Assembly: GCA_947626095.1 (NCBI GenBank)
Contig: CANQQV010000004.1
Span: 1 to 64,000, forward strand
Reading direction: 5' to 3'
Length of the DNA: 64,000 nt
Source of the DNA: an uncultured Bacilli bacterium
GTDB taxonomy: Bacteria > Bacillota_I > Bacilli_A > RF39 > UBA660
Below, in pieces: positions 55,433-57,993 of this stretch. Every line of letters begins with the position of its first letter. The first letter of the stretch is position 1. A program made the translations under genes and the position numbers. Under the pieces are notes generated by a model, which was given only the letters and a program-made list of their open reading frames with translations, had not been told where the DNA came from and did no database searches.

Positions 55433-56011
55433 ATGAAATTAACTTTAGCCAGTACTTCGAAATATAAAAGAAATATCTTAGATCGTGTTATGTTAAAACA
55501 TGATAGTATTAAACCACTATGTGATGAAATATCTGATAAACAAGACCCATATGAATATTGTATGGATATCGCTAAACAAAAAATTTTAAGTATCGAAAAT
55601 GAAATAAAAGAAGGAATTATTATCGCTTTAGATTGTATCGTTTTAATTAATAATAAAGTATGTGAAAAACCAGCTTCTTTACAAGAAGCCAAAGAAAACC
55701 TAAAATTATGTTCTAATAATTCTTCTAAAGTAGTTACGGGAATTGCTATTAAAAATCAAGAAACCAACGAATTAGTTTTAGATTACCAAGAATCAACCGT
55801 CTACTTTAAAACTATCATTGATGAAGACATTGACTTTTATCTATCCCATGAAGAGGATATTTTAGAATCAGCTGGTTTTATAATTGAAAACGTTGCTTCT
55901 AATTTTATCGATCATATTGATGGCAGCTTCTATAACGTATTAGGTGTACCTGTTGAAAAAATATATACAATATTAAATAAAATGGATATCTATTTAAAAG
56001 ATCTTAATTAG
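55433..56011 (+). CDS. maf: Maf-family nucleotide pyrophosphatase
   Basis: LTLASTS, DE, KP, VVTG, GSFYNVLGVP. Confidence 0.85.
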   Translation: MKLTLASTSKYKRNILDRVMLKHDSIKPLCDEISDKQDPYEYCMDIAKQKILSIENEIKEGIIIALDCIVLINNKVCEKPASLQEAKENLKLCSNNSSKVVTGIAIKNQETNELVLDYQESTVYFKTIIDEDIDFYLSHEEDILESAGFIIENVASNFIDHIDGSFYNVLGVPVEKIYTILNKMDIYLKDLN

Positions 56012-56036
56012 TTTTTTATAAAATGTTAAGAAGAAT

Positions 56037-56065
56037 TTGACATATTCCTTATATAGTACTATAAT
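56037..56065 (+). promoter_or_regulatory. Consensus sigma-A promoter upstream of the riboswitch
   Basis: TTGACA-17 bp-TATAAT. Confidence 0.85.
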
Positions 56066-56075
56066 CTAGCCTACA

Positions 56076-56160
56076 GAAAAGGGAGTAGTTCTCGTATATA
56101 TACGATATAATTCGTCATATCGACATTGTCCGGATTATATTTAAAAGAACAAGACTTTTA
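56076..56160 (+). ncRNA. yybP-ykoY (Mn2+) riboswitch aptamer
   Basis: AAAAGGGAGTAG ... P3 ATATAATTCG-TCATATC-GAC/GTC-CGGATTATAT ... CAAGACTTTT matches the family L1 (GAGUAG/CAAGAC) and L3 (UCA...C) hallmarks. Confidence 0.9.
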
Positions 56161-56183
56161 TGATAAGTAAAAGTCTTGTTTTT
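56148..56183 (+). terminator. Riboswitch expression-platform terminator
   Basis: AACAAGACTTTTA-TGATAAG-TAAAAGTCTTGTT-TTT; the 5' arm is the 3' strand of aptamer P1. Confidence 0.85.
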
Positions 56184-56252
56184 AATTGCCAAAACTTCTT
56201 TCTTATCATTTAAGTCGTAACTTTTCTGCAAATAGAAAAGGAAGTGTTTTAA

Positions 56253-56846
56253 ATGAAAGAAAAAGTAATCTTAAAAAGTACTCATCCAGAAGAATATGGG
56301 GATTTAGTTATTGAATGTCGTGTAATCCCTAATGAAGAAATCGGTGCTTATCTAGCTACAATAAGTGACGATAAAAAACAAGTAGCATATAAGAAAGGAA
56401 AAGTTAGTGCTCGTTATGGTACTCCAGGTGAAGTAGTTCATACTGTTTTAAAAACAATAGTTGATGGCCGTGAATATATTTTAAGTGAAGAAACAGCTCC
56501 AGTTGCTGCAAGACCAGATGAAGATGGTACATTAATTCCAGATGTTGTTGTTAAAAATATTTCAAGCACATCAAATGAAGAATATGTTGTTAAAGCAAGT
56601 AAATTTGTTAAAATGTATTATCAAGACGGTGAAGAATATGTTCCTGAATGTGAACCTCGTTTATTAACGGAAGTACCTGAAGACGTAATTATCATCACTT
56701 CATGGGGTGCTAAAGCAATTTGTTTAAAAGGTAGTTTTATTGTTACTTATAATGCTGAAGCCAATGATTACAACACTCTTGAACAAGGTGCTTATAAGTC
56801 TACTTATGTCAAAGTAGAAGACAGCCCTAAAATTACTTTATCTTAA
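56253..56846 (+). CDS. Soluble PGDYG-like protein with an internal repeat
   Basis: V.AR..TPGE.V.T, DVVVKN..EEYVV..KF...Y and SWG...GSFIV...Y..TY; no TM segments. Confidence 0.65.
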   Translation: MKEKVILKSTHPEEYGDLVIECRVIPNEEIGAYLATISDDKKQVAYKKGKVSARYGTPGEVVHTVLKTIVDGREYILSEETAPVAARPDEDGTLIPDVVVKNISSTSNEEYVVKASKFVKMYYQDGEEYVPECEPRLLTEVPEDVIIITSWGAKAICLKGSFIVTYNAEANDYNTLEQGAYKSTYVKVEDSPKITLS

Positions 56847-56854
56847 AATAACTT

Positions 56855-56880
56855 AATCAGGTTTAAACCTGATTTTATTT
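56855..56880 (+). terminator. Terminator
   Basis: AATCAGGTTT/AAACCTGATT followed by a T-rich tract. Confidence 0.65.
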
Positions 56881-56958
56881 TTATTATTTTACTCTCTAAA
56901 AAATTTGACAACAAAACTATTAAAGAATATAATCTAAGCTATAAACGGAGGGTTTATA

Positions 56959-57993
56959 ATGGGAATTAAAGAATTAAAAGAAAAAGCATCTGCAAAAACA
57001 TTCTTAACTGGTGCCGCTAAGGTTGCAACTACTACAACTTTAATTGCTGCATTACTAGTTGGTGCTCCAACAGTTGCTCATGCTGATGTTCCTGCTAGCG
57101 ATATTATCGCTGATGCCGAAACATGGGAAAACAGAAGTGAAATTAAAGCTCAAGATGGAACTGATGTTAGAAATTATTTCGAAGGTTATAATCGTTATGG
57201 CGAATCATATGTAACTGAAGAAGAAATTAGAAAGGCTATTGAATTATCAAATGCATTAAACGCTTATTATTTATCTCCACTATATTATACAAATACTACT
57301 AAAAATGAAGTATTATCATTAGATATAGATGGTATATATAACTATTATCAAGATCGTGTTAATCATAATCGTAGTAGTGAATTCCTTGACAATAATCTAG
57401 AAAATAAACCAGCTATTGATGCTTATACTTTATTTGCTTGTGGTACCTTATCTAGAAATCTTAAAAATGAACTAGCTTCTAATGTTTATAGCATTATAAG
57501 TAGTGAATATGGTAGTGCTGTAACATATCCTACAATAATTGTTAATAGTAATGAAGCATATGCTATTTTTACAATTAATGGTACTATTCAAAAAGTTAAT
57601 TTATATGGTGACTTAATTGATAGTATTAAAGCTAATTGTTCGTCTTTAGATTATAGATACAATACTGGTATAAATAATCTATCTGGCTATAGTGATAATT
57701 ATGAGAATTCTTTTGCTTATAATGGTGTTGATCGCTATACTAGTGAATCAGTATGGTTATCATTTCCTGATGATGAACGTAAAACAGATCTTACTACAGC
57801 CTTAAATCTAAGTGCTATTATGGTTAATTCTGACAATTATGATTTCACAATGGATGCTTATAACAGTGCTACATCTTTATCACAATATGAAAAAGATGAA
57901 CTAAGAAAAATGGGCTATAGTAGAGATGCTTTAAGATATGCAACTGAAAGAAATGCTTATCTAAACGCTGTTCCTACACTTCAATATAAATAA
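56959..57993 (+). CDS. Hypothetical secreted protein
   Basis: Signal peptide ending VAHA-D; RBS GGAGG; TTGACA..TATAAT promoter upstream. Confidence 0.75.
   Translation: MGIKELKEKASAKTFLTGAAKVATTTTLIAALLVGAPTVAHADVPASDIIADAETWENRSEIKAQDGTDVRNYFEGYNRYGESYVTEEEIRKAIELSNALNAYYLSPLYYTNTTKNEVLSLDIDGIYNYYQDRVNHNRSSEFLDNNLENKPAIDAYTLFACGTLSRNLKNELASNVYSIISSEYGSAVTYPTIIVNSNEAYAIFTINGTIQKVNLYGDLIDSIKANCSSLDYRYNTGINNLSGYSDNYENSFAYNGVDRYTSESVWLSFPDDERKTDLTTALNLSAIMVNSDNYDFTMDAYNSATSLSQYEKDELRKMGYSRDALRYATERNAYLNAVPTLQYK

Follow-up and report, generated by a model that had tools for sequence, protein, structure and literature searches.

A probable P4-less riboswitch of the yybP-ykoY (manganese) class ahead of a gene for a soluble PGDYG-superfamily protein in an uncultured Bacilli bacterium

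Our study examined a window of 64,000 nt, the whole stretch analysed here, at the start of contig CANQQV010000004.1 from an uncultured Bacilli bacterium (assembly GCA_947626095.1), in which a gene for a 197-aa protein follows a structured leader. The aptamer within this leader was scored with R1, a covariance model whose sole input was 32 leaders, all from the 197-aa family. The features of the locus are as follows.

56037-56065, plus strand: sigma-70 promoter, with a -35 box TTGACA (56037-56042), a 17-nt spacer and a -10 box TATAAT (56060-56065)
56075-56161, plus strand: aptamer of the yybP-ykoY (Mn2+) type in three-way-junction form, 87 nt (R1 73.6 bits, E 2e-12)
56077-56081 with 56155-56159, plus strand: helix P1.1, 5 bp
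56082-56088, plus strand: 5' strand of L1, GGAGUAG
56089-56091 with 56147-56149, plus strand: helix P1.2
56092-56105, plus strand: P2 hairpin
56106-56114 with 56131-56139, plus strand: helix P3.1
56115-56121, plus strand: L3, UCAUAUC
56117, plus strand: adenosine, third base of L3, the counterpart by alignment, not by structure, of the invariant Mn2+-coordinating A41 of Lactococcus lactis
56122-56130, plus strand: P3.2, 3 bp with a 3-nt loop
56140-56146, plus strand: 7-nt joiner UUUAAAA in the place of P4
56150-56154, plus strand: 3' strand of L1, CAAGA
56148-56183, plus strand: intrinsic terminator T1, a hairpin (56148-56180, -15.0 kcal/mol) with a T run at 56179-56183, the first two T of which lie in the stem
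56184-56252, plus strand: remainder of the leader, with a pyrimidine-rich element at about 56192-56212 and a Shine-Dalgarno region (AAAGGAAG) at about 56237-56244
56253-56846, plus strand: gene for the 197-aa protein, acidic, soluble and all-beta, a remote member of the PGDYG (PF14083) superfamily with 178 homologues
56855-56882, plus strand: terminator after the gene, a hairpin (56855-56874) with a T run behind it

A preliminary description of this DNA had proposed a consensus promoter and a monocistronic gene, and both were borne out. The promoter scored 12 of 12 matches, and transcription probably starts at about 56072-56075, immediately 5' of P1.1. The gene is monocistronic in organization, as its own terminator and then a second promoter, again with 12 of 12 matches (56905-56933), come after it. 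Relatives likewise carry a -10 box a few bases upstream of the aptamer.

The product had been described as acidic and devoid of transmembrane helices, which agrees with a pI of 4.83 and with a highest Kyte-Doolittle value of 1.45 over 19 residues, so that no transmembrane helix is indicated. Given the 178 homologues and an AlphaFold2 pLDDT of 91.3, alongside these properties, the gene is genuine and its product soluble. The label of a PGDYG-like protein, also given previously, holds for remote homology through intermediate sequences and does not extend to a direct match, as Pfam assigned none of its families to the window protein at E<=1 and the 27-bit cut-off of PF14083 was not reached. One of 20 family members scanned gave a weak PF14083 match (E 0.066). 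A family-profile search reached 243 proteins at E<=0.001, and among 78 of these that were scanned, PF14083 was found at E<=1e-3 in 22, nine of them at 27 bits or more. Alignment of the 197-aa family with the PF14083-positive set by hhalign gave 99.7% probability over 145 columns (E 2e-26), a result that is partly circular because alignment A4 came from the family's own search matches. A feature search ranked PGDYG-bearing clusters first (0.93). A stretch S-T-S-N-E-E-Y in the 197-aa family aligns with N-P-x-G-E-Q-Y in the PF14083-positive set, and compared to Pfam PF14083 the window protein has about 30 additional N-terminal residues and an insertion.

PF14083 (PGDYG protein) is an uncharacterized family of bacteria and phages. 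Members of the superfamily were also seen in phages and in fusions to receiver, TIR and ArdC/zincin domains. The predicted fold of the window protein matched uncharacterized phage proteins (best E 8e-9, TM 0.58/0.69). Among 50,697 phage records tblastn found nothing, PHROGs had no match for the window protein and NCBIfam returned chance-level rows only. Our searches of the PDB revealed no solved structural relative of the protein: a sequence profile search found nothing under E 0.1, Foldseek gave no match at E<=0.001, and VIA-align against 48,161 chains gave none at Z>=5, the best (Z 3.5) being small SH3/chromo-like barrels only. A full-text literature search found no paper on the PGDYG (PF14083) superfamily. 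No histidine is conserved in the 197-aa family and two of 20 aligned members have no histidine at all, so that the protein shows no evident Mn site of the classical kind.

Upstream of this gene, the compact aptamer lacking P4 that had been claimed was recovered, with the 7-nt joiner replacing that arm; the window RNA is therefore not the four-way junction of P1, P2, P3 and P4, and its helices are minimal (5 bp in P1.1 and 3 bp with a 3-nt loop in P3.2). A clear P2 was missing in some relatives (L018, L020, L021, L054 and L056). The 5' strand of L1 in the yybP-ykoY class is described as holding an adenosine for a cross-helix A-minor contact (PMC12153347), and the window strand answers to this by sequence (GGAGTAG in DNA letters). 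The strand is kept in 47 of 49 rows of the 197-aa-family group and in all 10 transporter-linked rows, and the third base of L3 is A in 46/49 and 10/10 rows, respectively. The selective Mn contact is reported to be N7 of the L3 adenosine A41 (PMC11672702). Both the window L3 and the commonest L3 of the 197-aa-family group, UCAAUUC, fit the nucleotides of the metal-binding MB site (U39-C40-A41-x-x-U44-C45) in the Mn-bound L. lactis structure as described in PMC9190785.

The leader element is beyond chance, as indicated by its R1 score and by covariation compared to shuffles. In a plain MAFFT alignment of 32 leaders of this kind, 90.3% of cells were paired and 15 of 22 pairs had changed on both sides; none of 500 shuffles equalled this, and slid controls reached at most 55.5% paired. 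The model-fitted alignment, which leans towards structure, gave 94.3% paired cells and 20/22 pairs changed on both sides. R1 produced no stray match at E<=0.001 across 311,919 bases.

The Rfam model of this class, RF00080, was silent in the window, its genome and the relatives scanned. It gave no match in the whole window at the gathering threshold (45 bits), in 55950-56300 at E<=10, or across the window's own genome, even though that genome holds two copies of the switch; likewise it gave none in the loci of 17 relatives at the gathering threshold, nor in relative L005 at E<=10. The preliminary description had held that the lack of an Rfam match would refute the reading, and that lack is real. 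We judge it not to be decisive, because transporter-linked copies in the same bacterial class score only 17-34 bits with RF00080, because the model as printed has no positions for P1.1 or for the 3' strand of L1, and because R1 recovers 11 of the 12 loci concerned. In particular, RF00080 found 13 places in 9 of 150 sampled genomes of that bacterial class, of which 12 became loci, and 11 of these precede genes for MntP (5), Na_Ca_ex (3), P-type ATPase (2) or CitMHS (1). R1 picked up these same 11, with scores of 27-58 bits and E values between 3.5e-9 and 0.007. An MntP-linked copy used as a positive control reached 33.9 bits with RF00080, under the 45-bit cut-off. The window RNA is akin to the transporter-linked Mn riboswitches in sequence and structure, as seen by this cross-detection.

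The silence of RF00080, together with the finding that the isolated aptamer folds no better than shuffled sequences (z = -0.40), would suit a conserved leader that folds and carries a terminator yet senses no ligand, for example an attenuator (constitutive or bound by a protein) or an element governing RNA stability. We regard this as very unlikely, as invariant single-stranded motifs sit at the L1 and L3 places of a known metal aptamer, R1 cross-detects copies ahead of MntP and ATPase genes, and the overlap between terminator and P1.1 is kept in nearly all relatives.

This overlap underlies the proposed regulatory logic. The 5' arm of T1 (56148-56160) holds the 3' strands of both L1 and P1.1, so that 56155-56159 pairs either with 56077-56081 in P1.1 or inside the terminator; terminator and closed aptamer are therefore mutually exclusive. 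A terminator sharing the 3' strand of P1, with an ON logic, had been claimed previously, and the arrangement was found not only in the window but also, with a T run of at least 4, in 48 of 49 rows of the 197-aa-family group. The unconstrained minimum-energy fold of the window leader makes T1 (z = -4.0). The plus-strand U tract of T1 is short, at 5 U, and a simple terminator scan reported the 56148-56180 hairpin on the minus strand only.

Downstream of T1, the pyrimidine-rich element is complementary to the loop and 3' arm of T1 as well as to the start-codon region, and the predicted fold of either state, including that with the aptamer forced closed, pairs 56194-56214 with the start region. 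The duplex between this element and the T1 3' arm reaches -9.9 kcal/mol in the window, where it is weak, because 13 of 200 shuffles attain that value. Mimicry of the 5' arm of T1 by the downstream element gives a strong signal among relatives, with 22 of 35 leaders beaten by two or fewer of 200 shuffles, and weak in the closest relatives of the window (43, 53 and 123 of 200 shuffles). Speculatively, and as a lead only, the element may pass the state of the switch on to the start codon or a second terminator.

Several characterized riboswitches of the yybP-ykoY family resemble the window RNA. The mgtA riboswitch of Streptococcus pneumoniae is described as having P4 replaced by UNAAA, a terminator after the aptamer and a response to Mn2+ (PMC6649816). 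By that description the window is alike in its joiner (UUAAA at 56141-56145 in place of P4), in its terminator hairpin with a U-rich tail directly after the aptamer, in its predicted transcriptional ON arrangement, and in a conserved L1 5' strand with AGA in the 3' strand; it differs in its target, a soluble 197-aa protein, whereas mgtA encodes a P-type Mn2+/Ca2+ ATPase. The Mn2+ riboswitch of L. lactis yoaB (PDB 4Y1I) shares the L1 strand GGAGUAG, the pattern U-C-A-x-x-U-C of L3 at the Mn site and an ON logic in which the switch helix P1.1 competes with a terminator, as described in PMC9190785 and PMC11672702. Unlike the window RNA, it has a four-way junction that includes P4, and its target is a cation ATPase; the P3.2 and P1.1 helices of the window are much shorter. 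Escherichia coli alx is described as another three-way-junction member of the family (PMC12153347), in which P2 is absent and P4 kept, the reverse of the window; alx is translational, pH-tuned and directed at a TerC exporter, whereas the window switch is transcriptional. A missing P4 is compatible with the yybP-ykoY family because mgtA, without P4 (PMC6649816), and alx, without P2 (PMC12153347), are described as accepted members.

Taken together, this evidence suggests that the leader probably belongs to the yybP-ykoY (manganese) riboswitches, in a P4-less three-way-junction form, and acts as a transcriptional ON switch for a gene that does not encode a transporter. The usual target of a yybP-ykoY riboswitch is a metal exporter gene. 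The class and the three-way-junction variant are known and the regulated gene is new, with the limit that gene-association tables in the founding papers may already list the family.

The preliminary description had suggested asking whether homologues of the protein share the riboswitch. Besides the window, the switch was found upstream of the gene at 42 of 48 assessable homologue loci (17/21 from genomes and 25/27 from metagenomes), with protein identities of 52-86% among paired loci, and was missing at six (L004, L014, L015, L019, L047 and L058). This bears upon the possibility that the switch is a remnant, left ahead of an unrelated gene by accident when a metal exporter was recently deleted, an event that had been named beforehand as fatal to the reading and of which no sign was seen. 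That account is extremely improbable: the pair persists across these loci amid varied flanking genes, none of the 21 genome loci has a recognized metal or cation transporter family as the next gene downstream, and about 70-140 nt consistently separate the aptamer from the start codon. The next downstream genes were an assortment of HTH, glycerophosphotransferase, YgjV, DUF6020, HD, transposase, acetate kinase and others.

Furthermore, the second copy of the switch in the window's genome precedes a gene for a 261-aa lipoprotein, so that both copies stand before non-transporters, and this genome carries no such switch upstream of MntP, three P-type ATPase genes or three CDF genes. A Mn-efflux regulon would not normally leave the MntP, ATPase and CDF genes of one genome switch-free. 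Across three related genomes, the genes behind the switch encode NfeD-like, nucleoside-deoxyribosyltransferase-like and unnamed proteins. A further switch-controlled ORF, at L061, showed no relationship to either the 197-aa family or the L070 lipoprotein. A precedent for such targets is Bacillus subtilis YybP, which is described as an uncharacterized DUF6376 lipoprotein of 148 aa behind a Mn riboswitch (PMC13598126). As there, a Mn-type riboswitch in the window precedes a non-transporter gene, and the second copy in the genome also precedes a lipoprotein; YybP differs in being extracytoplasmic and anchored in the membrane, whereas the 197-aa protein lacks a signal peptide, a lipobox and any DUF6376 match in Pfam.

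These targets raise the alternative that the RNA keeps the fold of the class while this subgroup responds to a divalent ion other than Mn2+, such as Ca2+, Fe2+, Mg2+ or Zn2+, or to some other signal, which would explain its control of non-transporter genes. A review considers that some yybP motif variants are probably altered in metal specificity, which would account for associated genes that do not fit the sensing of Mn2+ (PMC7266159), and the non-transporter targets of both copies and of the related genomes, with the exporter genes of the window's genome left without a switch, point the same way. In addition, in vitro binding by the mgtA-type three-way junction is described as tighter for Ca2+ than for Mn2+ (PMC6649816). 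However, the pocket is common to the transporter-linked copies (GGAGUAG and C(A/G)AGA as the 5' and 3' strands of L1, and the third-position adenosine of L3), alignment A3 shows no systematic change of the core between the two groups, and the L3 motifs of both family and window fit the MB site of the Mn-bound L. lactis RNA (PMC9190785). We therefore consider a different ligand unlikely. On the preferred reading of a manganese-class switch, homology of the RNA suggests Mn2+, possibly Ca2+, as the ligand.

Under that reading, transcription would begin just upstream of the aptamer. With the divalent ion in short supply, 56148-56160 would pair with 56168-56180, T1 would form and the transcript would stop at the U run. 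When the ion, most likely Mn2+, with Ca2+ perhaps acting as in S. pneumoniae mgtA, fills the L1/L3 pocket that includes A56117, the two helical legs would dock and keep the 5-bp P1.1 closed. The closed P1.1 would withhold the 5' arm of T1, allowing RNA polymerase to read into the single 197-aa gene; we infer that regulation in vivo is in this ON direction. The product is a cytosolic, acidic, all-beta protein of the PGDYG superfamily rather than a transporter. Its putative tie to manganese excess, drawn in the preliminary description, comes from homology of the RNA. Our best guess, weakly supported, is that the protein acts in metal stress, either by binding or buffering a divalent cation via carboxylates or by protecting a Mn-sensitive process.

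In summary, a riboswitch reveals which signal turns a gene on, and here a metal-sensing RNA class is tied to the PGDYG (PF14083) superfamily. Our study also exposes a blind spot of RF00080 for AT-rich, compact copies, none being found in a genome that holds two. The non-transporter targets, alongside an unregulated MntP, bear upon a question raised in PMC7266159, namely why yybP motif RNAs occur beside genes that do not resemble Mn transporters. It is tentatively possible, though doubtful, that in gut Bacilli with reduced genomes this type of switch has moved from exporters to a non-transporter regulon (PGDYG-like proteins, lipoproteins, NfeD-like and nucleoside-deoxyribosyltransferase-like proteins), with the PGDYG fold as a cytosolic module for divalent-cation binding or sensing; if true, this would be the first function for the PGDYG superfamily. 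The link between switch and gene provides a first, testable clue to the signal of this protein family, and with it the hypothesis of induction by an excess of Mn2+ or Ca2+ and of metal binding or protection.

A small, complete transcription unit occupies 56037-56880, with a structured leader RNA between its promoter and an ORF of 197 aa.

Features of the transcription unit and its 3' flank
56037-56065: sigma-70 promoter, TTGACA, 17 nt, TATAAT, a perfect match
56075-56161: structured RNA (aptamer), 87 nt, starting about 10 bases past the -10 box
56148-56180: terminator hairpin T1, -15.0 kcal/mol; of its five consecutive T, the first two lie inside the stem
Between T1 and the ORF: spacer of 69 nt with a Shine-Dalgarno sequence
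56253-56846, forward strand: ORF, 197 aa
56855-56874: second terminator, 3' of the ORF
56905-56933: promoter of the next gene, 12/12 match

The 197-aa gene is monocistronic, as it has its own promoter and is followed by the second terminator and a new promoter. Its product is acidic (pI 4.83) and no membrane helix is indicated, since the 19-residue hydropathy maximum is only 1.45. The preliminary description of a soluble, acidic, monocistronic gene product behind a consensus promoter was thus borne out. The surroundings are of a housekeeping nature, with D-Ala-D-Ala carboxypeptidase-like, FtsW/RodA-like and UMP-kinase-like ORFs, named by reading their translations, and Maf, named by Pfam as the sole one of these four neighbours that was scanned. 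The next gene (56905-57993) has its own perfect TTGACA-17-TATAAT promoter and encodes a 344-aa product with an N-terminal signal-like segment, for which no Pfam or NCBIfam family was found; this neighbour also lies downstream of the 197-aa-gene homologue in three relatives' loci (L001-L003).

A word-indexed collection yielded 178 relatives of the 197-aa protein, and in relatives' DNA (22 loci from species-representative genomes and 34 from metagenomes) a common RNA motif was found upstream of most of the genes. The suggested survey of homologues for the switch was counted with R1, a covariance model built from 32 leaders of this family, at E≤0.001. The motif was present in 17 of the 21 genome loci that include the gene start (absent from L004, L014, L015 and L019) and in 25 of 27 assessable metagenome loci (absent from L047 and L058), L048 being left out for too little upstream DNA; these counts contain near-duplicates (L039/L040, L060/L061, L017/L045, L050-L052 and L012/L013). 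To assess covariation, 32 leaders were aligned with plain MAFFT and tested against the 22 pairs of a structure drawn by hand (P1.1, P1.2, the base of P2, P3.1 and P3.2). Here, 90.3 % of cells were paired and both sides changed at 15/22 pairs, which none of 500 shuffles matched, and moving the partner by one column reduced pairing to 47.5-55.5 %. An alignment of 59 model-fitted matches (54 distinct), which leans towards the structure by construction, gave 94.3 % pairing and both-sided change at 20/22 pairs. The folding stability of the aptamer by itself was ordinary (z = -0.40), whereas the aptamer and terminator together were unusually stable (z = -4.04).

RF00080, the Rfam model for the yybP-ykoY (Mn2+) riboswitch, gave no match in the window at its gathering score, nor at E≤10 on the 351 bases around the element, and none was found across the whole 1.6-Mb genome or in the relatives' loci. 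Absence of an Rfam hit had been named beforehand as a refutation, but is not decisive here, as RF00080 also scores transporter-linked copies from the same class below its cut-off. Among 150 sampled genomes of this class it flagged 13 places in 9 genomes at 17-34 bits, with 0 at the 45-bit cut-off. Twelve of the 13 places became loci, and 11 of these were directly upstream of MntP (5), Na/Ca-exchanger-family (3), P-type ATPase (2) and CitMHS (1) genes, which are textbook contexts of the riboswitch class. The positive control, the MntP-linked copy in L023, reached 33.9 bits. When aligned to this copy (L023:1501-1590), the 177 positions of the model (Rfam 15) include the 5' L1 strand, P2, P3 and a long P4; in the printed alignment they end in the P4 hairpin, and neither P1.1 nor the 3' L1 strand is represented. 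P4-less, AT-rich copies therefore lose much of the score, and this layout helps explain why the compact copies fall below the cut-off.

R1, which is based on leaders of the 197-aa family only, matched 11 of the 12 RF00080-flagged loci (27-58 bits, E 3.5e-9 to 0.007). It missed L030, which has the second-weakest Rfam score (18.5 bits), and at E≤0.001 it produced no stray hits across 311,919 bases. In a joint alignment of 49 rows of this switch group and 10 transporter-linked rows, the 5' L1 strand GGAGUAG was present in 47/49 and 10/10 rows, respectively, and the third base of L3 was adenosine in 46/49 and 10/10. The 3' strand C(A/G)AGA was seen in 49/49 and 8/10, the remaining two being UGAGA. 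The Mn site of the Lactococcus lactis aptamer is described as G9, U39, C40, A41, U44 and C45 (PMC9190785), with N7 of A41 as the selective Mn contact and binding abolished by A41U (PMC11672702). L3 of the window, UCAUAUC (56115-56121), matches the L. lactis pattern U-C-A-x-x-U-C, with the adenosine at 56117. Taken together, the shared L1 and L3 motifs and the cross-matches of R1 support the interpretation as a yybP-ykoY-type riboswitch, and its position before a gene for a soluble protein is confirmed.

The aptamer is as compact as first described, with only the joiner UUUAAAA (56140-56146) in the position of P4. P4 is likewise absent from L001-L003, L036-L038, L044, L055, L057, L059, L067 and a second copy in the same genome. 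In the mgtA riboswitch of Streptococcus pneumoniae P4 is replaced by UNAAA, the counterpart in the window being UUAAA (56141-56145); that riboswitch is Mn2+-activated, with still tighter binding of Ca2+ in vitro (PMC6649816). Five relatives (L018, L020, L021, L054 and L056) have P4 and no clear P2, as in the Escherichia coli alx aptamer (PMC12153347).

The yybP-ykoY plan consists of two stacked legs, an A-minor contact by an L1 adenosine and a P1.1 switch helix common to the expression platform (PMC12153347). In the window, the 5' arm of T1 (56148-56160) consists of the aptamer's own 3' L1 strand and P1.1 3' strand, so a closed, docked aptamer would take this arm away and the terminator would be lost. 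From this structure only, we infer an ON switch, in agreement with the preliminary description. The overlap of terminator and P1.1, with a run of four or more T, was found in 48/49 rows of this switch group, and such a design has been reported for the L. lactis, Bacillus subtilis and S. pneumoniae switches. In most relatives the leader beyond T1 contains a second, nearly identical version (near-copy) of the T1 5' arm that is able to pair with the T1 3' arm (L005, L006, L007, L010, L035-L039, L043, L044, L049, L051, L053 and others). This pairing was beaten by ≤2 of 200 shuffles in 22/35 leaders, and in L011, L016, L039, L042 and L046 a second terminator-like hairpin has the near-copy as its 5' arm, which suggests a relay in which aptamer closure also disarms a second terminator in relatives. 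The corresponding element of the window (56192-56212) gave a weak signal (13/200 shuffles), and its predicted pairing partner is the start-codon region.

The scenario in which a transporter gene had been deleted from behind the switch was not seen, as 0/21 genome loci had a recognised metal/cation transporter family as the next downstream gene, the identity of which varies. Two loci have tandem complete switches before one 197-aa-gene homologue (L050:54-146 and 231-333; L052:1110-1204 and 1289-1391), each with its own terminator and the first with CGAGA and a short joiner. An extra switch also occurs past the PGDYG-like gene in L061:1560-1650, L060:1297-1387 and L048:1423-1513; the ORF behind it (L061:1715-2602) encodes at least 296 aa, has no Pfam family and is unrelated to both the 197-aa family and the lipoprotein described next.

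The genome of the window (91 % complete, 7.9 % contamination) holds a second copy at G000:C11:35875-35963 (L070:1501-1589; 70.6 bits), the L3 of which, ACAUCAU, is nearer the transporter-linked type. The product of the gene behind it (L070:1638-2420) is 261 aa long, belongs to no Pfam family and carries a signal peptide and an LSGC lipobox. This recalls YybP of B. subtilis, a lipoprotein of 148 aa whose gene is controlled by a Mn riboswitch (PMC13598126). Genes for MntP, three P-type ATPases and three CDF proteins are also present in the genome; TerC was not found. No switch was detected upstream of these seven genes by cmsearch with filters off (best 17.6 bits, wrong strand), and the MntP gene, from about L071:1412 (L071 is G000:C11:135-3581), follows a short intergenic region without a Mn-type switch. 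Among 60 other sampled genomes of the same family, at least three had a match at E≤1e-4 (66 candidates scored per genome). In G170, G194 and G177 the switch precedes four other genes (L078-L081). One encodes an NfeD-like membrane protein (PF01957) and another a nucleoside 2-deoxyribosyltransferase-like protein (PF15891); the other two products are unnamed, about 230 aa long and without a family, and have a hydrophobic stretch at the N-terminus.

No family was found for the 197-aa protein in Pfam, NCBIfam or PHROGs. AlphaFold2, using a 20-sequence alignment, gave a confident all-beta model (pLDDT 91.3, pTM 0.82), for which Foldseek found no PDB match at E≤0.001. VIA-align found none at Z≥5 in 48,161 chains (top Z 3.5, rmsd 2.8, 53 residues aligned), its best rows being small SH3/chromo-like barrels only. 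Five predicted viral structures matched at E≤0.001 (top E 8e-9, TM 0.58/0.69), all uncharacterised. Searching 1.84 billion representatives with the family profile yielded 243 proteins at E≤0.001. Of these, 78 were scanned, a non-random choice of fused forms and of remote hits of full length; PF14083 (PGDYG) was present in 22 at E≤1e-3, nine at or above the 27-bit cut-off, and among the 78 the fusion partners included a receiver domain, a TIR domain, HEAT repeats, and ArdC-N together with a zincin peptidase. Aligning the family with 16 PF14083-positive hits by hhalign gave 99.7 % (E 2e-26, 145 columns), a partly circular result because those proteins came from the family's own search. A language-model atlas ranked PGDYG-bearing clusters first (0.93), which is weak evidence given the low recognition value of the query. 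The label 'PGDYG-like' therefore holds as a remote kinship, but not as Pfam membership. Full-text literature searches for PGDYG or PF14083 found no paper mentioning either. The invariant residues of the family are mostly Asp, Glu, Asn, Ser, Thr and Tyr, with one Cys; no histidine is conserved (2/20 members have none at all), so a classical Mn site is not evident. The family may bind a hard cation via carboxylates; both the ligand of the switch and the role of the protein are inferences.

In summary, neither the riboswitch class nor its ON mechanism nor the P4-less form is new, and YybP is a precedent for control of a non-transporter gene. According to a review, yybP motif RNAs lie near 'diverse genes', and sensing of other ions is suggested there for some of the variants (PMC7266159). 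As far as our searches show, the founding papers of the class lying outside them, what is new is a whole group missed by Rfam and its specific, recurrent pairing with a soluble PGDYG-related family.
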